Source: Candidatus Uhrbacteria bacterium (lineage in GTDB: Bacteria; Patescibacteriota; Patescibacteriia; UBA9934). Taken from it: a stretch of DNA of 64,000 bases. Under the pieces are notes generated by a model. It was not told where the DNA came from. It ran no database searches and worked only from the letters and a program-made list of their open reading frames with translations. Position numbers and translations under genes: made by a program. The stretch's first letter is position 1. Every line of letters starts with the position of its first letter. Positions 2,053-63,548 of this stretch are shown piece by piece. Location: the NCBI GenBank assembly GCA_963822405.1, contig CAWGHH010000002.1, positions 107,703-171,702 of the forward strand, read 5' to 3'.

Positions 2053-3645
2053 ATGGATTCTCCCAATTCGGGTCGACCACGGCCGGTTGTACTTTTCGTC
2101 ATTGATGGTTTTGGTATTGCCCCTGATTCTGAAGGAAATGCGGTTACCAGAGCCAAGAAGCCTACTTTTGACATGTTGACTAGTCGTTATCCCGTAATGA
2201 CATTGCGAGCGTCGAGTGAGGAAGTCGGCCTTTCGTGGGGCGAGATGGGAAATTCGGAGGTTGGACACTTGGCTATTGGAGCTGGTCGAGTCTATTATCA
2301 AACTTTGCCAAGAATTAACAAAGCCGTATTAGACGGTTCTTTTGCGTCTAACCCAGCGCTTGCTAAAGCGATCTCGACGGTCAAAGCAAGCGGAGGCACT
2401 TTGCATCTCCTTGGTCTCGTGTCGAGCGGCAAAGTGCACTCGTACGACGATCATTGTTACGCCCTTTTGCGAATGTGTAAGGAGGCCGGCATTAAAAAAG
2501 TGGCGGTTCACGCAATCCTTGACGGTCGGGACACACTCTATAATTCGGGCATCGACTTCATTAAAAGCCTTGACGCAAAGATGAAGGAATACGGGGTGGG
2601 CGAGATTGCCTCGCTCATGGGTCGTTACTACGCCATGGATCGTGACAACCGTTGGGATAGAGTTGAAAAAGCTTATAACGCTGTTGCTCTAGGCAAAGCT
2701 GAAAAAACGTCTGAGGATCCATTCGTCGCTATTCAGGAAAGCTACGCCAAAGAAGTCTACGACGAAGAATTTGTGCCAACGGTGATTACTAGGGGTAACA
2801 AGCCAGTGGCAACGGTCAATTCTGGTGACGCCGTTCTATTTTTCAACTTCAGACCAGACCGTTCGCGCGAATTAACTCGAGCATTCGTTCTTCCGGCCTT
2901 CGAAAAATTCACTCGTGAGTACATTAAGGATTTAGTCTTTGTGACGATGACGGATTATGAAAAGGGTTTGCCGGTAGATGTTGCCTTTCCGCCAATTGTT
3001 ATTCAGAATACTTTGGCCGAGGTGGTGTCTACTGCTGGCTTGGTTCAGCTGCATATTGCGGAGACCGAGAAATACGCGCACGTCACTTTCTTCATGAACG
3101 GTACGCGTGAGGAGCCTTTTCCAAATGAGGATCGAGCTCTCATTCCTTCGCCCCATGTAGCGAGTTATGACACCGTGCCGGAGATGAGCGCGTTCGCGGT
3201 AACTGATCGGGTCATTGCTGAAATTGAGCGGGGGAATTACGACGTGATTATCGGCAACTTCGCAAATCCTGACATGGTTGGTCATACTGGAAACCTTGAG
3301 GCGACTATTAAGGGTGTTGAGGCAGTTGATACTTGTATAGGTAGAATTGTCGAGTCTGTACTGAAACACAACGGCGTTCTGCTTATTACAGCTGATCACG
3401 GAAACGCCGAAGAAGTTCTGAACCTCCAGACGCACGCCATGGATAAAGAACACAGTACAAATCCTGTTCCATTCTTTATCATTGGCAACCAGTTTGAGGG
3501 CAAGCCGTCTATTGCCGGTGACGTGCCAAATGGTGACCTCTCGCTCATGCCACCCGTTGGCATGCTGGCTGACGTCGCGCCAACCGTCCTAGCCATTCTT
3601 GGCCTCCCACAGCCGCCGGATATGACGGGAACGCCATTACTCTAA
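2053..3645 (+). CDS. gpmI: 2,3-bisphosphoglycerate-independent phosphoglycerate mutase
   Basis: 530 aa. N-terminus VVLFVIDGFGIAP and metal-site motif MGNSEVGHLAIGAGRV are characteristic of iPGM. Full-length protein. Confidence 0.9.
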   Translation: MDSPNSGRPRPVVLFVIDGFGIAPDSEGNAVTRAKKPTFDMLTSRYPVMTLRASSEEVGLSWGEMGNSEVGHLAIGAGRVYYQTLPRINKAVLDGSFASNPALAKAISTVKASGGTLHLLGLVSSGKVHSYDDHCYALLRMCKEAGIKKVAVHAILDGRDTLYNSGIDFIKSLDAKMKEYGVGEIASLMGRYYAMDRDNRWDRVEKAYNAVALGKAEKTSEDPFVAIQESYAKEVYDEEFVPTVITRGNKPVATVNSGDAVLFFNFRPDRSRELTRAFVLPAFEKFTREYIKDLVFVTMTDYEKGLPVDVAFPPIVIQNTLAEVVSTAGLVQLHIAETEKYAHVTFFMNGTREEPFPNEDRALIPSPHVASYDTVPEMSAFAVTDRVIAEIERGNYDVIIGNFANPDMVGHTGNLEATIKGVEAVDTCIGRIVESVLKHNGVLLITADHGNAEEVLNLQTHAMDKEHSTNPVPFFIIGNQFEGKPSIAGDVPNGDLSLMPPVGMLADVAPTVLAILGLPQPPDMTGTPLL

Positions 3646-10708: not shown

Positions 10709-11791
10709 TTAGATTGAACCGACCACTTGATAGATAGGGGTAATGATCGAGAAGGCAAGTACAGCAACCATCAGTCCAATCCCGACAATCATAATAGGCT
10801 CAATAAGTGTGGTAACGTTTTTTGTGGCCTCGTCTATTTCTTGTTCGTAGAAATTCGCTAGATAGATGAGCATCTCTCCTAGGGTGCCAGTCTCCTCGCC
10901 GACGCGAATTAGACGCAAGGCAATAGGTGGAACTAGATAATTATTCGAGGTGAGAGCCAGGGTGATTGTTTTTCCTTCAGAAACGATAGTTTGCATTTTA
11001 GTAAAGAGACGCCTGTAATAGAAATTTTTAATCACGGACACGGTCACTGGTAGGGCTTCATCAAGTGGCATTCCGGTATTGAGTAAGGTACCGAGAAGTC
11101 GCATGATTCTGGCGAGGTTAGTATTTCTGACAATTTTTCCTAGAACTGGAACATGCAGTGTTAAGAAGTGGGTGATTGGTTTTACAAAAGAAAAATTCCG
11201 GATGAATAAGAAGATGATAGTTGAGGCGATCACTACGCCTGCGATTAAAATCCCATAATGTTGAACTACAAAGGCTATCCAAATCAGAACTTTTGTAGTC
11301 CAGGGCAGTGGCACGTCGAGAGATTTGAATAGCGCGGTAATATTTGGCAATACGAACACCACAATCCCGGTACAGATAATAATAGCGCTCATGAAAACAA
11401 TAGACGGATACATCATGGCGCTCCTAATTTTTACCCGGAGGTCATGTTCTTTCTGCATCTGATCGGCCAGTTGTTGAAGATTGCCTTGGAGAGTACCAGA
11501 GTTTTCACCAGCTCGAATGAGGTTTATGAAGGTGGTAGAGAAAACATGCGGAAACTTTTCAAGACCGTCAGCCAGTGTGTTGCCGCTTCTGACGGATTCT
11601 CTGAGGCTGGTTAAGATTGTTTTGAGGGAGCCTTTTGATTGACTCGAAAGAATCTCAATGGCGTCATCAATCGGTAGGCCAGATTTAAGGAGAACGGCTA
11701 AATATTTAGTAAGTAAAAGTTGCTCGGTTAGCGAAAGCTGAACCGACATTTTAGTGTATAGACTTACGGATGGGAGTTGTTTTTCGACCAT
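10709..11791 (-). CDS. pilC: Type IV pilus assembly platform protein PilC (GspF family)
   Basis: 360 aa with duplicated T2SS-F domains (LLKSGLPIDDAIEIL... and LLNTGMPLDEALPV) and 3 TM regions. Confidence 0.85.
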   Translation of the reverse strand: MVEKQLPSVSLYTKMSVQLSLTEQLLLTKYLAVLLKSGLPIDDAIEILSSQSKGSLKTILTSLRESVRSGNTLADGLEKFPHVFSTTFINLIRAGENSGTLQGNLQQLADQMQKEHDLRVKIRSAMMYPSIVFMSAIIICTGIVVFVLPNITALFKSLDVPLPWTTKVLIWIAFVVQHYGILIAGVVIASTIIFLFIRNFSFVKPITHFLTLHVPVLGKIVRNTNLARIMRLLGTLLNTGMPLDEALPVTVSVIKNFYYRRLFTKMQTIVSEGKTITLALTSNNYLVPPIALRLIRVGEETGTLGEMLIYLANFYEQEIDEATKNVTTLIEPIMIVGIGLMVAVLAFSIITPIYQVVGSI

Positions 11792-11794
11792 AAA

Positions 11795-13099
11795 CTATTC
11801 TTCCATGACGCGACTAAGTTCTTCTATGGTGGTTTCTTTGGATAATACTTTTCTCACGCCATCCTCCATGATAGTGGTCATGCCTTCTTTTTTTGCTAAC
11901 TCCTGAATTTCATCACTTGTTGCGCGCTTGTTGATTAGGCCTTGGATAGGCACGGAATTTTCTAGAACTTCATAAATACCAACTCGGCCTTTGTACCCGG
12001 TATCATTGCATTTTGTACAACCTTTTGCTTTTGCAATCTCGATTGTTTTTTTGTCTTTAAACAAGGCATCCGCCGTTTGTTTGTGCAGCATTTTCCTTCC
12101 TTCCTCGACGTTTAAGGTTTGTGTTTCGACACAATCTTTGCAGACGCGTCTAACTAGTCTTTGGGCGATAGCACAAATAAAAGTAGAAGAGATGAGGAAT
12201 GGTTCTACTCCCATATCAATAAGTCGAGGAATGCTGGTAGCCGAGTTATTAGTATGGAGAGTGGACAGGAGTTTGTGTCCTGTTAGCGCGGCGTTCACGG
12301 CAATCTTTGCTGTCTCTTCATCTCTAATTTCTCCAACCATGATGATGTCAGGATCTTGTCTTAATAGGGCTCGTAAACCGGTAGCAAAGGTTAATTTGGC
12401 CACGTGGTCAACTTGGCTTTGATTGACTCCTGGAATTTCAAATTCGACTGGATCTTCTATGGTAGCAATGTTTACTTCCCGTCTATTGATTACTTCAAGA
12501 ATGGCGTAAATACTAGTAGTTTTTCCGCTACCAGTTGGACCAGTAGCCAGAATCATGCCCCACGGTTTTTTAATAGCTCTTGTGATACGCGCCAAATCTT
12601 CTTCGCAGAAACCAAGCTGTTCAAGGGTTAATTGGTGCGATTGGCTCGAGAGAAGACGCAGAACTCCCTTTTCACCTAAGGAATCTGGGAGGATCGAGAC
12701 GCGAACGTCTACATCTCCAAGTGGGGAGGCGAATTTGAATCTGCCGTCTTGTGGGCCGTGATGCTCGTCAGTGCGCATTCTGGTTAAGATCTTGATACGA
12801 GCCACTAGCTGGGTATGGAGAGCTGTATCTAAAGTGAATTCATCATGAAGAATGCCGTCAATTCGAATACGAATAATGGCGTGATCTTTCCAGGGCTCAA
12901 GGTGGACGTCTGAGGCCCGAGCAGCATGGGCAAAGATCATGATCATTTCAAAGAGTCTGATGGCTGCATCTGAGGTGGTACCTGCGGTTGCCTTTACGAT
13001 GAGATCTTCAACATCTTTTTTTGACGGAAGTTTAGCAGTTGCAACTTTAGAGGTTTTTAAGGCTGGGGCGCTAATTTTAGTTTTTTTCTCGACGGCCAT
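11795..13099 (-). CDS. pilB: Type IV pilus assembly ATPase PilB (GspE family)
   Basis: Walker A GPTGSGKTT, Asp/His boxes, and a C-terminal tetracysteine motif (CKDC...CTKC). Likely start MAVEKK at 13099; the tabulated ORF extends to 13165. Confidence 0.9.
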   Translation of the reverse strand: MAVEKKTKISAPALKTSKVATAKLPSKKDVEDLIVKATAGTTSDAAIRLFEMIMIFAHAARASDVHLEPWKDHAIIRIRIDGILHDEFTLDTALHTQLVARIKILTRMRTDEHHGPQDGRFKFASPLGDVDVRVSILPDSLGEKGVLRLLSSQSHQLTLEQLGFCEEDLARITRAIKKPWGMILATGPTGSGKTTSIYAILEVINRREVNIATIEDPVEFEIPGVNQSQVDHVAKLTFATGLRALLRQDPDIIMVGEIRDEETAKIAVNAALTGHKLLSTLHTNNSATSIPRLIDMGVEPFLISSTFICAIAQRLVRRVCKDCVETQTLNVEEGRKMLHKQTADALFKDKKTIEIAKAKGCTKCNDTGYKGRVGIYEVLENSVPIQGLINKRATSDEIQELAKKEGMTTIMEDGVRKVLSKETTIEELSRVMEE

Positions 13100-15937: not shown

Positions 15938-16373
15938 TTTATCCTGAAGAGATTCTTTTATAGGAGAAAAATTTCTGAGGATCTGATCATGAAAGTATTG
16001 GTCCCCGAGCGTAGGCGAGGGGCCTAGAGGTGGTGGATTGGATATGAGAAATAGGGTCAGGTCGGGGGATGGGAATTTGTCTTTCTTGGTGGGCGAGTAC
16101 TCTCTTCGTGGGCGCGAAGACGTCTATCGAAAACCGTTGAGCTGTGTTAAACCCCGCAGGGTGCCTCGGTGAGATGAAAATAGAACGGAGCTGATGCTTC
16201 TAGTGGCTTCGAGATAACAATTTAATTTTCTACAAACGGTCCTCCAGGTGTACACTTGCGGTACACCAATTCGTAGGTGCCATAAGGAACACATGGTTCT
16301 TCTTCTTATTTCGTTATTTCGCATCGCATTGAAATCCTTCTCATAATATAAGAATCACTTCAGGGTTAGCACT

Positions 16374-42948: not shown

Positions 42949-44241
42949 ATGAAAAAGCTCGTCCAAAAAGTTATTGCTGGTGTGGCTAAGCGTAAGTTAG
43001 CCAAGTTCCATCCGACCGTTATTGCAGTTACTGGTTCAGTCGGTAAGTCGTCAACGTGCGCGGCAATAGCAATTGCTCTTGGGGCGAAATATCGTGTTCG
43101 CAGTCCGTTGAAAAACTACAACAATGAATTCGGTTTGCCTTTAGCAATTTTAGGCGAGAAGAGTCCAGGTAAAGATGCGTGGGAGTGGTTTAAGCTTTGG
43201 AAACGCGCCGTCATGATGAAGGACATGCCGGAGTACTTGGTGCTCGAGTACGGTGCTGACAAGCCAGGAGACATTTCCTATCTCGCGTCTATTGCTAAAC
43301 CAGACATTGCGGTGATTACGGCTATTTCGTCGGTTCATCTTTCAAACTATCCGGCTATCGAAGCGTTGATCGAGGAGAAAGCTTCACTCGGCGATTTTGT
43401 AAAAGTTGGCGGGCTAGTTTTGTTAAACGCCAATGACGATATTGTTTCTCTTCTTTCGAGCAGATACTCTGACGCCTCGGTCATGATGTACGGCATAGAG
43501 GCTGGAGATGTTCGAGCGGAGAATGTGAGGATCGAAACTAAACTTGAAGAAAGCTTTGACCCAGGCGAAACGTTTGCAGTTTTAAAAGCAACGATCAAGA
43601 CGAAAACCGATGAGATCGAAATCACTTTGAAGAATTGTATTTCAATGGGCGCTTTGTCAGCTGCGGTTGTCGCTGTGGCCGTAGCGACTAAACTCGGCGT
43701 TCCACTTTCTGACGCGGTTAGAGCACTTGAGCAGGGAATGAAGCCAATTAATGGTCGACTCAACCCAATCCCGGGAATCAAAGGTGCACTCGTGCTTGAT
43801 GACTCATATAACGCCGCCCCGGCATCCGTTAGTGTTGCGCTCGACGCTCTTATGCGTTTCACTCCGGGGGAGGAACGAGATCGCCGTATTGCTGTTCTTG
43901 GCGACATGGCCGAGCTTGGTCCTCGAACAGAATCTGAGCACCGTGCCATTGGCAGACATGTAGCTAGAGCTTGCGATCTGTTCGTTGCCGTTGGTCCGCA
44001 AATGGGTTTGGCTGCTGAAGAAGCTATTGCTGCTGGTTTGCCCAAAGACAAGGTTGAGCGTTTCAGTACTTCTGTCGAAGCTGGCCGTTACCTTGATGCC
44101 AACATCCAGAAGGGCGACGTTGTTCTCGTTAAGGGTTCGCAATCTATGCGAATGGAAAAAGCCGTAAAAGACATCATGGGCGAGCCACTCAAGGCCGCTG
44201 ACATACTCGTGAGACAGGAGGAATACTGGTTGGAGAGATAG
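42949..44241 (+). CDS. murF: UDP-N-acetylmuramoyl-tripeptide--D-alanyl-D-alanine ligase
   Basis: Mur ligase P-loop VIAVTGSVGKSST and MurF-specific C-terminal region LDDSYNAAPASVSVALDAL. Adjacent to ftsI. Confidence 0.9.
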   Translation: MKKLVQKVIAGVAKRKLAKFHPTVIAVTGSVGKSSTCAAIAIALGAKYRVRSPLKNYNNEFGLPLAILGEKSPGKDAWEWFKLWKRAVMMKDMPEYLVLEYGADKPGDISYLASIAKPDIAVITAISSVHLSNYPAIEALIEEKASLGDFVKVGGLVLLNANDDIVSLLSSRYSDASVMMYGIEAGDVRAENVRIETKLEESFDPGETFAVLKATIKTKTDEIEITLKNCISMGALSAAVVAVAVATKLGVPLSDAVRALEQGMKPINGRLNPIPGIKGALVLDDSYNAAPASVSVALDALMRFTPGEERDRRIAVLGDMAELGPRTESEHRAIGRHVARACDLFVAVGPQMGLAAEEAIAAGLPKDKVERFSTSVEAGRYLDANIQKGDVVLVKGSQSMRMEKAVKDIMGEPLKAADILVRQEEYWLER

Positions 44242-44262
44242 CAAATAATCAACAGAGACAGG

Positions 44263-44296
44263 CAAAAGTTGACTTCCGGTCAACTTTTGTGTATAT
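44263..44296 (+). terminator. Rho-independent terminator after murF
   Basis: Perfect 11-bp stem caaaagttgac / gtcaacttttg with a ttccg loop, followed by tgtatattt. Confidence 0.6.
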
Positions 44297-44622
44297 TTGG
44301 AACTGGTCTGCCGGACCGGGAAACGAACGTCTCACTGATTGCTTCAGGCAATCCCAAAGTCATCAAGCTGACGGCAAAAAGGTACAAAAGCGGGCGGGGA
44401 CCATGTACCTTCCAGCTGTGATGTGCCCGTGTGGGGACGGGTCGTTGTTGGGCTGAGCCGTTGAGGTTCGCCTGATAAGACTAGGAGTCGTGGGACTTAT
44501 TTCTCGCCCGGCAGGCCTCATTTTTACTCACTCGTGTTTCTTCGCTTATATTCCCCCTTCCAGGCTTTCCTGGAGGGGGGTTTGCTTTTGGCTAAAATTA
44601 GCTATGAAACGCCATTTTCGGC

Positions 44623-44651
44623 TTGACAAAAGTCGATTTTTTTGCTATGAT
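44623..44651 (+). promoter_or_regulatory. Consensus sigma70-type promoter with no downstream ORF
   Basis: TTGACA at 44623-44628, a 17-nt spacer (aaagtcgattttttttgc), then TATGAT at 44646-44651. Nothing coding follows on the + strand before the convergent glmS. Confidence 0.5.
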
Positions 44652-44657
44652 AGAAAG

Positions 44658-45047
44658 GTTACTTTGGAGGTTGAGATGCTCTTATGTTGATATGCCGTCG
44701 CTGACGGCTTCGAGTGTCCATCGGCACTCCTCCCTACGGGGAACCCACCGATGGCCGGCCCCCGCATCTGAGGATATGCGAGATATGCCGGGTTGAATCC
44801 TCGCCGCTATTTAACTCTGTGTTCGCCGCAATGAGAGGACGAACAAAACCCCGACTGATCAAGTCGCTGGAGGAAGTCCACTAACCAAATAACGAGTTCA
44901 GCGGATTTCTCACTAATCCGTGGGACGTCGCCAACACGTCCCGTCCAAATTGGCACGCCGAAGCTGTACCGACGAACACGGGAGTCGCGCCCCGAGTCAG
45001 CACGTGAACCCGCCCCATCCCTTGAGATGGTGGCGGGTTTTCATTTT
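44658..45047 (+). ncRNA. Candidate structured ncRNA (~390 nt) of unknown class
   Basis: Bounded upstream by the consensus promoter and at 45009-45047 by a stem cccgcc(c)catc ... gatggtggcggg plus ttttcatttt. Internal hairpins include gccgtcgctgacggc, cgcatctgaggatatgcg, gggacgtcgccaacacgtccc and the long-range pair ccatcgg...ccgatgg. No credible ORF. Could not be matched to RNase P, tmRNA, SRP or glmS-ribozyme consensus by eye. Confidence 0.3.
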
Positions 45048-45109
45048 GCTTAGAATTGGTTCGCTTCTCCCTCTCCTCGAAGAGGAGAGGGTCGGGGTGA
45101 GGATCAGGG

Positions 45110-46939
45110 TTAATCTACCGTCACTGCCTTGGCTAAATTCCTCGGCTTATCAGGGTTTATTCCCTTCAGGACCGCCAGCTCATACGCCAGAAATTGCAAC
45201 GGCACCGCCGCGAGCAATCCCGTCAGTACTCCGTCTGGTGGAATCACGATCACATCATTTGGATCGGCGATGCCTCTTGCGAGTGATGGTTCATCGGTGA
45301 TGATAATGTTTCTTGCTCCGCGAGCCTTCACTTCTTCGGCCGCGGTTTTCATGAGTCCCGAGTGTCGATCGTTTAGAATAAGCAGGATGACCGGTGTCCC
45401 TTCGGCAATGAGTGCGAATGGGCCATGTTTGAGCGCGCCACCTGGATAGCCTTCCGCGTGTAAGTAGGTAATTTCTTTTATTTTCAAAGCTCCTTCGCGC
45501 GCGATTGGTTCGCCGGCACCTTTGCCAAGGACAAATAGATGTTCGGCACTTACAAGAGTCGACGCGATGCGTTGGCACTGTTCCCGAACGGAGAAGGTCA
45601 TTTGAATGTTCGTCGAGAGTCGTCTCAAGTCCTCGAGTAGCGTTCGGCGGCGGTTTACTTCCATGTCGCGTTTTTCCGCAAACCAAGTGGCGACTAGTTC
45701 AAGCGCGGTCACTTGCGTCACGAACGCTTTAGTCGAGGCTACCGCGTGCTCGCGGCCAGCGTTTAAGTACACGCCACACTTCGTCGACCGAGCAATCAAT
45801 GAACCGACGGCGTTGACGATAGAATATGACGGGATGCCAAGGTTCTCGGCCATCATGACGGCGCGGTGTACGTCTTTGGTTTCGCCAGATTGTGAAATAA
45901 CGAGCAAGCCAGCGCCATTCATGGGGAAGTGGTGCAGTGTAAGTTCGGACGCGTCGACGACTTGTACAGTCTGAAAAGACTTCATCGCCCGCATCGCGAG
46001 CGCACCATAGAGTCCAGCGTGATAACTCGTCCCGCACGCGGCAATGACTAGGTGACGGATCGATAGTAATTCTTCAGCTCGACTTTCTAGTCCGCCGAGT
46101 TTGACGCTGACATCGTCTTTTAGTCGAGCACCGTGGTTGAGTGTGCGCTTGATTGCTTCTGGTTGTTCTAGAATTTCTTTGATCGTCCAATGAGGGAATG
46201 GCGCTGGACTGGCGGCGATTATGTCGTCCGACGCTTTCTCGACGCGTGTGAGGTCGAGCCCGCTTCCGTCCGCTCGCACAAAAGCCATTTCACCATTTTG
46301 CAATGAGATGAAGTCGCGAGTTGCCATTCCGAAAGCGGCCGGTTCGGATGCAATAAACGCTTTGCCTGGGGCGAGTCCAATAACAATCGGACTTCCGTTG
46401 CGCGCGGTGATGATTGTGTCCGGCATGAGGGGGGAGAGAACGCCAATCCCCCAAGTACCTTCGAGTTTTTGCAACGTCGATTTCACCGCGTCGGCGAGTA
46501 CCAAACCGTCGTCGAGAAACTTACCAATAAGTTGAGCGATTACTTCAGTATCAGTTTCTGACCGGAAGGTGATTCCGGTTTGTTCGAGCGACGACCGTAG
46601 TTCTTGGTAGTTTTCGATCACGCCATTATGAACAACAGCCACGCGGTTTTTTGCGTCAATATGTGGGTGCGCGTTCGCGTCCGTTTTGCCCCCGTGCGTA
46701 GCCCAGCGGGTATGCCCGATTCCGAGCTTGTGGCCTACGTGGGCGGCACCGTGTTCTTTTAGCGTCGCGATTGCATCGGATGTGCCTCGACTAGCAAATT
46801 TTGTAGTAGTTAACGTTTTGTCTGGTCCAATAGTGGCAATACCCGCTGAATCGTATCCTCGATTTTCCAAAATACTTAGCCCGTCAATTAAATAATTGAC
46901 ACTGTCCTCATTGCCAACGAAGCCAATAATGCCACACAT
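45110..46939 (-). CDS. glmS: Glutamine--fructose-6-phosphate aminotransferase (isomerising)
   Basis: MCGIIGFVGNED (N-terminal Cys nucleophile), two SIS domains, and C-terminus ...NLAKAVTVD. Confidence 0.93.
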   Translation of the reverse strand: MCGIIGFVGNEDSVNYLIDGLSILENRGYDSAGIATIGPDKTLTTTKFASRGTSDAIATLKEHGAAHVGHKLGIGHTRWATHGGKTDANAHPHIDAKNRVAVVHNGVIENYQELRSSLEQTGITFRSETDTEVIAQLIGKFLDDGLVLADAVKSTLQKLEGTWGIGVLSPLMPDTIITARNGSPIVIGLAPGKAFIASEPAAFGMATRDFISLQNGEMAFVRADGSGLDLTRVEKASDDIIAASPAPFPHWTIKEILEQPEAIKRTLNHGARLKDDVSVKLGGLESRAEELLSIRHLVIAACGTSYHAGLYGALAMRAMKSFQTVQVVDASELTLHHFPMNGAGLLVISQSGETKDVHRAVMMAENLGIPSYSIVNAVGSLIARSTKCGVYLNAGREHAVASTKAFVTQVTALELVATWFAEKRDMEVNRRRTLLEDLRRLSTNIQMTFSVREQCQRIASTLVSAEHLFVLGKGAGEPIAREGALKIKEITYLHAEGYPGGALKHGPFALIAEGTPVILLILNDRHSGLMKTAAEEVKARGARNIIITDEPSLARGIADPNDVIVIPPDGVLTGLLAAVPLQFLAYELAVLKGINPDKPRNLAKAVTVD

Positions 46940-47378
46940 AGGCGATTGTTCTAAATAGTGACAGGAGTAATATTGTCACGTCAGGTCTAGACTGGGCAAG
47001 TTCTACGTGTTAATATCTTGTCGTAGTTAACGTCTGTGTTCCGAGCTCGTCTCCTGGTTCTTGCGTCTCCTCCATAGATTGCCGGCCCGGAACAGCCGGT
47101 TGCAATCTCCAATAGAGGTTGAGCTCGGAACACCCCCTCTGCTCCGGTGATAGCGCGCGACGTAATTTTGGCTTGACGGTCTCCTCGCACCTCCCCCTGT
47201 AGGACGATCTGTCGGCCATTCACGCGTACGGCGCTATCTCCGGAGCTCCTCTTCGCCACCCTTTGCGCCAAGCGCACTGGGTGGCGATTTCTTTAATTCA
47301 ATACAAAAAGCGCACTAACGGGCTACGCTCTCTGCAACGATTAAACGTTGAGGGCACGCAGCCGCGCTAGTGCGCAAG

Positions 47379-59504: not shown

Positions 59505-59705
59505 AAGTGGGCGGAAGTATATAGGAAGGATTGAAATTAGTCAAAGTTTTTGGCACCCTTTTTGACAAACCCTAGCGTTTTTTGTAAGGTCACCCGTTCC
59601 TTGAATGTTTATCGAACACATTCCGGGTCCAAGTTAGCGGGGAGAAAGTTCGAGACAGTGAAAGTGACTAACATCTATTGGCGAATTCTCGCCAAGGAGG
59701 ACGTG

Positions 59706-61691
59706 ATGAAGGTTCAATTGTTTGCACTCATGGGCCTGATGCTCATGGGATCGTGTGGCCCTGCCGGCGTGAGCCTGCAGGAAGACTCCGGCGACAGCGC
59801 CGTGTCGAGCGGCTTCTACGCGCTCGACGGGACCGAAGAAGCTCGCTTGAGCTGTAACGGTACGATCGAGGTCCACAACTTCGACCAGGACTCGTTCGGT
59901 CGGGAATACTGCGTGGCGCTCGGTACCTCGAGCCTCCCGTTCTTCGCGACCACCGTCGGCGACTGCAACGACGGCGACCCGCTCATCTACCCCGGCGCCC
60001 CAGACCCTACGGTCGATGGCGTCGATCAGAACTGCGACGACGTCGACGGCCCTTTGCAGAACGGAACCTTCTACAGGGACCTCGATGGCGACGGGTACGG
60101 CAAAGCGTCGAGCGGCACGAGCACGGTTCAGGGTACCGGCTTCGTGACGAGCAACACGGACTGCGATGACACGAGCAACCTCGATCACCCGAACGCGGCC
60201 GAGGCCTGCGACGGCATCGACAACGACTGCGACCACCTCGTGGACAACGGTGCGCCGGGGAGCGCGACGTGGTACGGGGACGCCGACAAGGACAACTACG
60301 GGATCTCCACGCAGACCGTGGTGGCGTGCATGAAGCCGGCGAACTACGCGGTTCAGGCCGGTGATTGCAAGGACGACGACATCACGATCCACCCCGGCGC
60401 GGCGGAAACCTGCGACGGCAAGGACAACAACTGCGACAACCTGGTGGACAACGGCGCAACGGGCGCCAGCACCTGGTACGCGGATGTGGACGGTGACACG
60501 GCCGGCAGTAGCGTGCACGGTACCGTCACGGCGTGCGCCCAGCCCCAGGGGTTCGCCGCGAGCAACAACGACTGCGACGACAACAACTTCGCGCGGACGC
60601 CCGGCAAGACCGAGGTCTGCGACGCCATCGACAACGACTGCGACAACGTCGTGGACGAGGGCGCGGGCAGCGTGTACTTCGCGGACAAGGACGGCGATAC
60701 GATCGGCAGTTCGGTGTACGGCACCACCACGGCGTGCGCCCAGCCCACGGGGTACGTCACGACGAGCACCGATTGCGACGACAACAACTTCGCGCGGACG
60801 CCCGGCAAGGCCGAGATCTGCGACGGCGTCGACAACAACTGCAACGGTGTCGTGGATGATGGTGCGACTGGCATCATCATCTGGTACCTGGACGTGGACG
60901 GCGACAGCTACGGCGTGAACGGGCTCATCTCGAACGCCTGTGCCAAGCCGAGCAACTACGCCATCCAGGGCGGTGACTGCAACGACGCGAACGGAGCGAT
61001 CAAGCCCGGCGCGTCCGAGTCCTGCAACGGCGTGGACGACAACTGCAACGGGCAGGTCGACGAAACGTGCAACTCCGTCACCTACTACAAGGACAACGAC
61101 AACGACGGTCACGGGAGAGCGAGTAGCGGAACGAGCACCTCTTCGGGCAACGGGTTCGTCACGAGCAGTGATGACTGCAACGACGGCGACGCCCAGACCT
61201 ACCCCGGCGCGCCTGAGACCCGGGTCAACGTCGACAGCAACTGCGACGGCACGGCTTACACCGGCTCGAACAGCGGTTCGTGTCCGACCGGCCAGAGCAA
61301 GTTTGCGGGTTCGTTCGTCGGCTCGGGCACGGGAAACATCATCCTGTCCGATTCGTACTTCGACATCCGGGACACCGTGAACGGCGTCAACTACCTGCCT
61401 TGGGCTCACGTCAGCACCGGTACGCCTTCGGGCATGACGGTGTCGACGAGCGGCAACAAGGTGACGTTCGCGTATGACGTGTGTCTGCCGGACACCGTGA
61501 TCAAGACGGTGTCGTTTACCTACTACTACTCGAACGACTCCCAGGTTCGCTACAGCTGTGAAGGCGGCGCGAACAACACGCCGACGAACTTCACTGGCGT
61601 GTGGACCATGACGAGCGACGGCTTCTCGACCCCCGTGTCGAAGGCGCTCAGCGGAAACCCCGTGACGGGCTGCGTCGGCACCTACTACTAG
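59706..61691 (+). CDS. Secreted Cys-rich repeat protein with seven 'putative metal-binding' (Myxococcus MopE-type) motifs; compositionally foreign (~65% GC)
   Basis: Start MKVQLFALMGLMLMGSCGP with SD aaggagga. Seven repeats of DC[DNK]D....[YH]PGA.E.CDG.DN[DN]C[DN]..VD[DE]G. These alternate with WY.D.DGD.[YI]G loops (WYGDADKDNYG, WYADVDGDTAG, YFADKDGDTIG, WYLDVDGDSYG, YYKDNDNDGHG). GC content is visibly far above the flanks. A 714-aa antisense ORF (59634-61778) is a high-GC shadow. Confidence 0.7.
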   Translation: MKVQLFALMGLMLMGSCGPAGVSLQEDSGDSAVSSGFYALDGTEEARLSCNGTIEVHNFDQDSFGREYCVALGTSSLPFFATTVGDCNDGDPLIYPGAPDPTVDGVDQNCDDVDGPLQNGTFYRDLDGDGYGKASSGTSTVQGTGFVTSNTDCDDTSNLDHPNAAEACDGIDNDCDHLVDNGAPGSATWYGDADKDNYGISTQTVVACMKPANYAVQAGDCKDDDITIHPGAAETCDGKDNNCDNLVDNGATGASTWYADVDGDTAGSSVHGTVTACAQPQGFAASNNDCDDNNFARTPGKTEVCDAIDNDCDNVVDEGAGSVYFADKDGDTIGSSVYGTTTACAQPTGYVTTSTDCDDNNFARTPGKAEICDGVDNNCNGVVDDGATGIIIWYLDVDGDSYGVNGLISNACAKPSNYAIQGGDCNDANGAIKPGASESCNGVDDNCNGQVDETCNSVTYYKDNDNDGHGRASSGTSTSSGNGFVTSSDDCNDGDAQTYPGAPETRVNVDSNCDGTAYTGSNSGSCPTGQSKFAGSFVGSGTGNIILSDSYFDIRDTVNGVNYLPWAHVSTGTPSGMTVSTSGNKVTFAYDVCLPDTVIKTVSFTYYYSNDSQVRYSCEGGANNTPTNFTGVWTMTSDGFSTPVSKALSGNPVTGCVGTYY

Positions 61692-61780
61692 GTGAATGGG
61701 TGAGTCGGTGACTCTTGGGCGCCTTTGGACTTCGGTCCAGGGGCGCCTTTTACTATGTTGTGATAATCTGTTCGGCATCT

Positions 61781-62986
61781 ATGCGACATAAACACGTTCT
61801 TCCTTCTTTTGCAGACTTATCACAAGACATTGCTGGCGAGATTCCGGTAGGGATTATTGAGGACTGGATTCAGAGCGACGGTAGTGAAGAATCGCACGCC
61901 AAAATTTTGAAACCCTTCGAACGCCAAGGGACTTTTGTTTCTTCGGACTCTGCGGGACTGTCTAAACTATCACTCGGCAAGTCATTGATCGAGGTCATGA
62001 AGCTAGTCAGCCAACCAAAAGAAATTATTCACGCTTTTGGCAAAGCTATTGGCGGGCAGGCGATTGGTGTTTGGATTGCGGACAATACGCAGATGTTCTA
62101 TCCGTCGAGTGTTCCAGTCGAAGATGTAGTCGGTCAGATGCTCGCTGTGCAAGCTGAGGCGTCGAGGTGCCTCGTTAAAGTTGGACTCGGCATACATACT
62201 GGTGTGGCATATGAAATCGGCGGAGGATTATATGGGGCAGATGCTGATAGCGTCGAGCATGTGACCGAAGAGGATTCTAAGGCGGGGGAGGTTATGGTTT
62301 CGGCGGAAGTGAAGAAGGTTATAGGTGATAAGTGGAAGGTTAGGACAGAGCGTGAAGGCTATTTTGTGCTCGAACAACCAACGGAAGCGTTGCCGGTGAA
62401 GGCTGGCAATGATATTCGTTATCCGGCGCCTTTTGACGGTAAGTTTTTCGACGAACTTCAAGCTCTTGACCTAAATAACAAGCAAATGGTAGAGGCGCTC
62501 GAACAGGCTCGTCTACAAGCTAGAACGGTAGTTCTCATTCGAGTTTTTCATACTCACGAGGAATTGCTTTTGAATACACTCGTTAAAGGAGTCGCGACAA
62601 ACTCGCTCATGAATAATGTGTTGAAACGATACGACTGCAATCTCATTAACATGAATGGCAGCATCATGATTGTAACGCTTGAGCAATCTGCTGAAGCTGT
62701 AGATTTAGCGCTCGCTCTGCATGAAGCGACTCGAAAAAATGAATTGACTGCTAACGTTTCAGTAGTAGCTGGCGAGGTATTAATCTTCGATCTTGGCCAA
62801 GGCAAAGAGCAAATTGCTGGTTCACCGGTGAATGTTGCATCAAAGCTCGCGGAAGATACTGATGAACGTAACGCCTTATTCCTTGAGTCGTCAGTGATCG
62901 AGCACGCGCCTCAACACGGATTGCAAATGCCATTTACTGTGGTGAAGTCGGGAGTTACATTATCTGGAATTCGGGTAACTTTTTAG
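61781..62986 (+). CDS. Hypothetical protein
   Basis: ~400 aa from MRHKHV. GC content returns to the window norm. No motif recognised. Confidence 0.4.
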   Translation: MRHKHVLPSFADLSQDIAGEIPVGIIEDWIQSDGSEESHAKILKPFERQGTFVSSDSAGLSKLSLGKSLIEVMKLVSQPKEIIHAFGKAIGGQAIGVWIADNTQMFYPSSVPVEDVVGQMLAVQAEASRCLVKVGLGIHTGVAYEIGGGLYGADADSVEHVTEEDSKAGEVMVSAEVKKVIGDKWKVRTEREGYFVLEQPTEALPVKAGNDIRYPAPFDGKFFDELQALDLNNKQMVEALEQARLQARTVVLIRVFHTHEELLLNTLVKGVATNSLMNNVLKRYDCNLINMNGSIMIVTLEQSAEAVDLALALHEATRKNELTANVSVVAGEVLIFDLGQGKEQIAGSPVNVASKLAEDTDERNALFLESSVIEHAPQHGLQMPFTVVKSGVTLSGIRVTF

Positions 62987-63041
62987 GCACAATTAGCGGA
63001 ATATTTGAGTTCTGGCGTGCTATACTATTCTCGTATCAAGT

Positions 63042-63548
63042 ATGAGAATTAGCACTAAACTTGCTGGGGCCGCACTGCTTCTGATATTTATCAGCTCTGT
63101 TTTTTCTATTTCCGTTTTTTATTGGTCGACTAAGATTCCGGACGATCAAGCGTTAATTGCTTTTAAAATCGCTTCCATCATAATTTTATTTTCTGTTTTC
63201 GGGGTAGCATTTTTCTTTTTTGTGACGAGCAATAGAATGAGTGAGTCGTTCGCTTTACTTAAAACTGAATGCATCCAGCTTGCTAATCAGGATTTTTTGA
63301 AGGTGAAAATTAATACCGGTGCAATTATCAAATCATCAGATGAAATAGGGGAATTGGCGGACGCTTTTTACAAGATGGCGGGTAAGATACAGAAGTTTCA
63401 GAAAAATATGGAGCGGGTAATTGCGGAGAGAACCATTAATTTAGAGCGAAGTGTAGAGGAACTTGAGAGGATGAATAGAATCATGGTGGACAGAGAAGTA
63501 CGAATGGCGGAATTAAAAGAGGAAATTAGAAGTTTGCGGAAGGAATAA
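63042..63548 (+). CDS. Membrane-anchored HAMP-domain protein (sensor N-terminal module)
   Basis: Two TM helices, then a HAMP-like segment DEIGELADAFYKMAGKIQKFQKNMERV and a coiled coil. Stop TAA at 63546-63548 is 1 nt from the next ATG. Confidence 0.5.
   Translation: MRISTKLAGAALLLIFISSVFSISVFYWSTKIPDDQALIAFKIASIIILFSVFGVAFFFFVTSNRMSESFALLKTECIQLANQDFLKVKINTGAIIKSSDEIGELADAFYKMAGKIQKFQKNMERVIAERTINLERSVEELERMNRIMVDREVRMAELKEEIRSLRKE

Follow-up and report, generated by a model that had tools for sequence, protein, structure and literature searches.

The 64-kb stretch of Candidatus Uhrbacteria DNA analysed here (64,000 nucleotides, referred to below as the window) carries two convergent genes, murF (42949-44241, + strand) and glmS (45110-46939, - strand, stop codon 45110-45112), which are separated by a spacer of 868 nt (44242-45109), raising the question of what is encoded there. 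Gaps in the window have a median length of 30 nt at a coding density of 90% (crude gene call) and no truly non-coding gap is longer than the murF-glmS spacer, with a nominally longer gap (61778-63042) being occupied by a 423-aa ORF and two other nominal gaps holding small antitoxin-like genes. An earlier note on this DNA had called the gap unusually long, which it is, although its length was given as 830 nt, and had proposed that an orphan promoter drives a highly structured, ORF-less transcript of about 390 nt, either a divergent housekeeping RNA or a novel sRNA. The spacer was found to hold two tandem RNA units, A (44305-44590) upstream and B (44623-45047) downstream, with unit A, the REP-like palindrome between the B terminator and glmS and the mosaic make-up of B having been overlooked previously. 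Elsewhere in the window, 15938-16330 comprises about 390 nt of apparently non-coding, partly G-rich DNA, a further long spacer for so compact a genome, ahead of a small antitoxin ORF (Phd/YefM-like by eye), and positions 60001-61000, at 65% G+C against a background of about 47%, have an AT skew of +0.30 inside a 714-aa ORF (59634-61778, - strand), which suggests a compositionally biased, probably repetitive protein region. The features of the spacer are as follows:

44262-44297, + strand: murF terminator hairpin lying over the RNA A promoter TTGACT-17-TATATT (44269-44297), found by the promoter scan
44305-44517, + strand: core of RNA A (213 nt), with a 16-bp closing helix P1, a 9-bp helix P2 and covarying hairpins
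44518-44590, + strand: 3' tail and terminator of RNA A, with the U/C-rich ACTCGTGTTTCTTCG, a stem at 44553-44580 and a T-tract to about 44590
44603-44651, + strand: promoter of RNA B, with an A/T-rich AATTAGC block, the -35 TTGACA (44623-44628), a 17-nt spacer and the -10 TATGAT (44646-44651)
44658-44689, + strand: 5' segment of RNA B, common to L215, with the putative transcription start about 7 nt past the -10
44690-44866, + strand: middle cassette of RNA B, unique to the source genome, with the ccatcgg/ccgatgg helix
44867-45006, + strand: 3' module of RNA B, with the hairpins CGGATT..AATCCG and GGGACGT..ACGTCCC and the strand ATTGGCAYGCCGAAGCTGTACCGAC
45007-45047, + strand: intrinsic terminator of RNA B, a bulged 13-bp GC stem with a 6-nt loop and TTTTCATTTT
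45067-45104, + strand: REP-like palindrome and GGGGTGAGG, lying outside the RNA, past the B terminator but short of the glmS stop

From its MurF relatives among GTDB genomes the window was placed in Candidatus Uhrbacteria (Patescibacteria/CPR), and more relative contigs were obtained through exact-protein look-ups of MurF and GlmS relatives. The convergent murF-glmS synteny is kept in the closer relatives, with the content of the spacer varying from 0 to about 3000 nt. The loci, denoted by L numbers and given with their identity to the window, hold the following:

L215 (GlmS 97%, flanking DNA 80-85%): A and B
L202/L203 (MurF 90%): A only, then glmS
L204 (MurF 85%): A and palindromes, B absent
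L002 (MurF 83%): A and the B promoter, where the contig ends
L003 (MurF 79%): an A-like RNA and two palindromes, B absent
L205 (MurF 72%): a short RNA resembling A, then the same B promoter with a body of about 500 nt that has its own terminator
L004 (MurF 71%): two unrelated-looking structured units and a third element common to L210
L210/L211 (MurF 70%): the third element of L004 only
two more loci (GlmS 79-80%): a gap of 202-348 nt, in which B would not fit
L213/L214 (MurF 64%): two different non-coding units, each with promoter and terminator
more distant Uhrbacteria: spacer lacking, or occupied by small protein genes

RNA-like units would seem to have a hotspot in the murF-glmS spacer of this clade. 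In L004 a unit of about 490 nt (11525-12015) folds with z = -7.1, mostly as one long imperfect hairpin, and an element of about 240 nt adjoining glmS (12019-12259) is common to L210 (5412-5642) and L211 (E = 1e-47), neither having an Rfam match. The non-coding units of L213 (5378-5847 and 5878-6244), bounded by promoter and terminator, are unrelated in sequence to A or B, and Rfam at E ≤ 10 matched no family in the gaps of L205, L004 and L213. Strings resembling 16S rRNA (GGCGAACGGTGAGTA) were seen in L205, a likeness that was dismissed on there being no SSU model match at E ≤ 10.

Unit A was aligned from five genomes (the window, L215, L002, L202 and L204), and the consensus fold obtained with RNAalifold and pair counts has 53 pairs, of which 22 show changes on both sides, and 89% of its cells are paired, none of 500 column shuffles equalling the real fold and slid controls being 30-39% paired. 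The fold energy of the unit (about 290 nt) has z = -3.6, its tail and its strong terminator, the latter listed by the terminator scan, are kept in L002, L202, L204 and L215, and a promoter of the form TTGAC(T/C)-17-TAT(A/T)(T/A)T inside a hairpin recurs in L202, L204 and L003. A profile of A matches the murF-glmS locus only and no Rfam family was matched, SRP included. On this comparative evidence unit A is a bona fide structured RNA, and with a structured RNA so well supported the spacer does host RNA genes. Tandem duplication of A was rejected as the origin of B, the likeness between the two being one of promoter and terminator shape only.

The promoter of B was placed in context by a scan of the 64 kb on both strands, in which a site had to match the -35 at 5/6 positions or more and the whole consensus at 10/12 or more. 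Seven sites scored at least 10/12 and two of these 11/12, with only the B promoter adding an extended -10, its T-rich 17-nt spacer ending in TG. TTGACA-17-TATGAT is a near-consensus sigma-70 promoter (11/12), where the earlier note spoke of a perfect consensus, and its ranking as the strongest promoter-like site of the window holds. The 1.7-kb region analysed has four promoter-like sites against 0.8 expected. The block CTTGACA(A/G)AAG..ATTTTTTTGCTAT, together with the upstream AATATTAGC, is kept in the window, L002, L215 and L205, about 60 nt around the promoter being retained in these relatives, and between the window and L205 the promoter is 87% identical over 39 nt (E = 1e-8) with transcribed bodies that are unalignable. 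The tRNA genes in L052 and L205 are preceded by similar promoters, indicating that the B promoter is of the stable-RNA type of this lineage.

A 7-bp hairpin (44618-44636) overlaps the -35 of B. Both unit A (44262-44290) and unit B (44618-44636) have the -35 inside a hairpin that is followed by a T-run doubling as the promoter spacer, which is to say a terminator-promoter overlap, and in L002 the B -35 hairpin stays paired via a C-G to U-A change. The same promoter type (TTGACC-N-TTTTTTTGCTATATT) was seen in L013 (2841-2920) before a GC-rich start that does not look like tRNA (GCGCGGTCCGTCATCCCGACGG...), which may be another stable RNA gene in a more distant Uhrbacteria genome.

Counting from the -10, transcription of B would start at about 44658, and in the 5' segment that follows the window reads GGTTACTTTGGAGGTTGAGATG where L215 has GGTCATTTG, a three-position gap and TTGAGATA. 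At the other end the GC hairpin (45007-45039) is followed by TTTTCATTTT to 45047, 62 nt from the glmS stop, much as the earlier note had described the terminator. The hairpin appears in the MFE fold and its stem is identical in L215, with L205 having a different terminator at this position; a simple terminator scan missed it because of its one-base bulge. The long-range pairing of ccatcgg (44718-44724) with ccgatgg (44748-44754) was likewise confirmed in the sequence, and a pseudoknot with GAGTG/CACTC is possible in the middle cassette, the structure of these 177 nt being purely a single-sequence prediction because the cassette has no homologue. Over the whole of B the fold energy has z = -2.4 on the + strand, with 2 of 100 shuffles folding as well, and z = -2.9 on the antisense strand, so that the description of the transcript as highly structured receives moderate support. 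Judged by its sequence, B would qualify as an independent RNA gene with an intrinsic terminator, having its own promoter, its own Rho-independent terminator and no conserved ORF.

The REP-like palindrome at 45067-45104 produced the sole near-match to Rfam, a weak one to whalefall-1 (19.4 bits, the gathering score being 37). Two similar copies occur in the L003 gap (11609-11681), and a different palindrome family occupies the same place in L204 (about 3230-3310) and in L215 (about 1320-1440 in reverse-complement coordinates), such that palindromes of two families, carrying the G-rich tails GGGGTGAGG or GGGGGAAGTC, are found across the relatives between the last RNA gene and glmS. An IS200/RAYT-like transposase flanked by inverted repeats lies in this gap in L018. 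On the far side of glmS, about 30 nt upstream of its start (46940-47020, - strand), lies an inverted repeat GTGACAATATTACTCCTGTCAC that is present with small changes in L215, L205 and L004 and could be an operator or promoter part.

Comparison with L215 and L205 revealed B to be a mosaic. The promoter, the first 30 or so transcribed nt and the 3' 180 nt or so with the terminator are common to the window and L215, the 3' module and terminator (44867-45048) being homologous by nhmmer (E = 1.8e-30 to 1.6e-31) with identical runs of 25-45 bases separated by replaced hairpin tips and indels, whereas an nhmmer search with 44658-44866 against 1.4 Mb of related loci matched itself only. At the middle position L215 has about 265 nt that are unrelated to the middle of the window copy and homologous to the L205 body (E = 2e-6 for the body alone, 3e-18 including the promoter). 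Given that the window and L215 share 80-85% DNA identity in the flanking genes and have a wholly dissimilar middle, the middle has been replaced rather than drifted. No second copy of any part of B was found in the 64-kb window or in the 1.4 Mb of related loci, and a REP/MITE-type repeated element was rejected on account of this single-copy state.

Conservation in a related genome, by which the earlier note had set store, thus extends to the promoter, 5' end and 3' module of B and not to its middle. Full copies of the window-type 3' module number two (the window and L215), and because these agree at about 85% of positions, no different from the flanking genes, the module shows essentially no covariation (two weak double changes between two sequences), its fold being predicted rather than proven with only two full copies. 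In the middle domain of L215 and L205 the structure was hand-drawn from the two sequences themselves, the pair counts therefore being biased. It has 24 pairs, of which 95.8% are paired and five carry changes on both sides; slid controls were 27-52% paired, with 0-1 double-changed pairs. The drawing joins a GAGA/UCUC stem, a 7-bp stem, an internal-loop arm and a hairpin, with a GAAC/(U/A)AGUA internal loop and a UYCCG-GUGA-CGGRA hairpin as its elements, and is suggestive of a three-way-junction fold in the L215/L205 version of B. G-U pairs in the helices of both the 3' module and this domain fit the + strand only.

When the window and 87 loci were searched with a covariance model of the L215/L205 domain, nothing was recovered besides the two sequences that the model was built from. 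Window B and the B' unit of L004 gave collinear short matches only, at chance E-values, with a folding term of only -7 kcal/mol in their joint fold. A metagenome scan with the pattern CTCGCCGC-N40-70-GGAAGTCCAC, taken from the window and L004 motifs and too loose with its degenerate 5' bases dropped, returned at least 120 chance matches with no nhmmer homologue among the matches listed, and searches of phages, plasmids and viral contigs gave no match.

The reading that we favour, and consider probable, is that 44623-45047 is a real though dispensable, clade-restricted, modular and independent gene for a putative ncRNA of about 390 nt. B would be transcribed from about 44658 to about 45047 and would probably act as a free, structured, trans-acting RNA, as a protein-binding or regulatory scaffold, in which the conserved 5'/3' framework would hold an internal domain exchanged between lineages. 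B is absent at the syntenic site in L202, L204, L003 and L210 (MurF 90%, 85%, 79% and 70%), and a unit missing from the first three of these relatives is dispensable and could be decaying, such that B would be accessory rather than essential.

This patchy content among close relatives is also what would be seen if the spacer were non-functional, with the promoter, hairpins and terminator being relics or by-products in a recombination-prone landing pad and any transcript functionless, an explanation that we regard as unlikely. The mosaic body with a middle segment that lacks a homologue, the REP-like elements in the same gap with small genes there in other relatives, and the modest z-score that is similar on both strands are in its favour. 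Such a spacer would not be expected to keep the promoter block at 72% MurF identity when the surrounding spacer is unalignable, nor to have compensatory changes in the L215/L205 domain or long perfect runs beside replaced hairpin tips in the 3' module, and a genome this compact, its gaps measuring 30 nt at the median, should tend to shed junk.

An extension of the independent-gene reading, which is quite speculative and in our judgement a poor bet, is that A and B together represent an undescribed class of modular stable CPR RNAs with a strongly conserved tRNA-type promoter, a 5'/3' scaffold and an independently folded internal domain, in L215/L205 the three-way junction, that lineages would swap by recombination. 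For such a class, patchy and fast turnover would fit a conflict or partner role, as in phage defence or the host-cell interaction of episymbionts, and not housekeeping.

That the B promoter is far better kept than the body, that in L205 and L213 the last RNA has its terminator right against the glmS stop and that B always points at glmS raise a different explanation, in which the promoter and convergent transcription toward the 3' end of glmS have been selected, through antisense or interference control of glmS should the terminator be leaky or regulated, or through insulation of the convergent units, with the RNA body being largely irrelevant. This seems improbable, however, in that a strong conserved terminator stands before glmS, glmS is unchanged in relatives that lack B, and B is predicted to pair with the glmS translation-initiation region no better than shuffled sequences do, while the conservation and covariation of the body argue that the RNA itself matters. 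Long complementarity of A or B was likewise not found elsewhere in the window.

The suggestion of a strongly diverged RNase P RNA, tmRNA, 6S or SRP RNA drew on the size of about 390 nt, which fits together with the stable-RNA-type promoter, and on GGAAGUCC at 44872, which looks like the 5' strand of helix P4 in RNase P RNA. With gathering thresholds, Rfam 15 matched tRNA-Glu only over the whole window, and at E ≤ 10 on 44200-45150 gave matches at chance level with no RNase P, tmRNA, 6S, SRP or large ornate RNA (OLE, GOLLD, ROOL, raiA and HEARO) among them, leading to the rejection of each of these families. In the case of RNase P RNA, GGAAGTCCAC (44872-44881) aligns to GGATATCTTC in L215, where GGAAGTCC has changed to GGATATCT, so that the GGAAAGUCC-type P4 strand is not retained, and the gene for an essential RNA would not be expected to be missing at the syntenic site in four relatives (L202, L204, L003 and L210). 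In the case of tmRNA, ARAGORN found only the tRNA-Glu in the window, with no tRNA-like acceptor/T-arm and tag frame, and no tmRNA in the 1.4 Mb of related loci. The MFE and MEA folds of B are multi-branched and not a 6S-type rod, as single-sequence folds counting as weak evidence, and SRP RNA, in its 4.5S or long form with domain IV/helix 8, had no Rfam match for A or B. A unit lacking in several of the nearest relatives is at odds with an essential role, and the wholesale swap of the RNA middle speaks against a housekeeping RNA as well. Unit B is not RNase P RNA, tmRNA, 6S or SRP RNA, even a strongly diverged form being hardly credible, and of the identities offered by the earlier note it is the fallback of a novel sRNA that stands, B being an ORF-less promoter-to-terminator unit that resembles an RNA gene.

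With regard to coding potential, ORFs downstream of the promoter are at most 66 aa, besides a 126-aa antisense shadow of glmS, in agreement with the earlier view that no plausible ORF follows. Pfam at E ≤ 1 matched none of 10 ORFs tested, and no reading frame is conserved on either strand of B, the frames being broken by indels between the window and L215 with no sORF kept. A pseudogene was rejected, tblastn of the gap-filling proteins of other relatives against all RNA-type gaps having given noise, as was a riboswitch or attenuation leader, the next gene being glmS on the opposite strand and the mini-ORF start codon not being kept. A small protein or leader peptide, either the Met-Leu-Leu-Cys mini-ORF at 44668-44689 with a Shine-Dalgarno-like GGAGG 5 nt ahead of its ATG (GGAGG-N5-ATG CTC TTA TGT TGA) or an antisense sORF like the 57-aa opposite-strand gene called by JGI in L215, is extremely improbable, for the ATG is ATA in L215, a leader would have no target because no same-orientation gene lies downstream, the similarity of the L215 antisense ORF to the window falls in two different frames and Pfam has no matches.

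The independent RNA gene that we favour would be compared most naturally with the orphan structured bacterial RNAs that have come from comparative genomics (Weinberg/Breaker-type motifs such as whalefall-1 and Polynucleobacter-1). Like these, B is a stand-alone, ORF-less promoter-to-terminator unit of narrow range with a predicted multi-hairpin fold, known only from metagenome-derived genomes. Unlike them, it has no match among the 4227 models of Rfam 15, and unlike most of them its middle differs completely between near relatives. From these searches B would appear to belong to no Rfam family and to be restricted to a small clade of the ultra-small Candidatus Uhrbacteria, and the accessible parts of the literature on structured and non-coding RNAs and on RNase P RNA in CPR/Patescibacteria/Uhrbacteria describe no RNAs like A or B.

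RNase P RNA (type A/B) is similar to B in length, in having a strong promoter of the stable-RNA type and in its CR-I (P4), which GGAAGUCC recalls. In E. coli M1 RNA, the CR-I/P4 motif lies about 60 nt from the 5' end, whereas the B motif lies about 215 nt from it and no P4 3' strand was found. B shares with 6S RNA a variable sequence, an abundant look and a housekeeping-type promoter, and divergent 6S RNAs are known to escape Rfam models; B differs in its multi-branched predicted folds that lack a rod with a central bubble, in being twice the usual length and in being missing from near relatives. The L215/L205 version recalls the ornate RNAs (OLE, GOLLD, ROOL, raiA and HEARO) in its three-way junction, its hairpin with a GUGA (GNRA) tetraloop and its two internal loops of GAA opposite AGUA, which we take to resemble loop E/sarcin-ricin motifs. 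None of these motifs was seen in the window's own copy of B, which is much smaller than GOLLD or ROOL and was seen with no associated protein gene or prophage context. Two tandem or related ncRNAs by glmS, each with promoter and terminator, are also reminiscent of the trans-acting, Rho-independent sRNAs GlmY/GlmZ, which regulate glmS in enterobacteria, but A and B have no sequence relation to these, B is convergent to glmS rather than upstream of it and the pairing with the leader was not above shuffles.

The analysis removes a tempting wrong annotation, that of a divergent RNase P RNA or tmRNA, for which the GGAAGUCC string alone is no evidence. The genomes of the CPR/Patescibacteria are extremely compact and their ncRNA content is almost unexplored. 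If expression is confirmed, A and B would be new Rfam families and would provide a tractable example of accessory-RNA turnover in reduced genomes.
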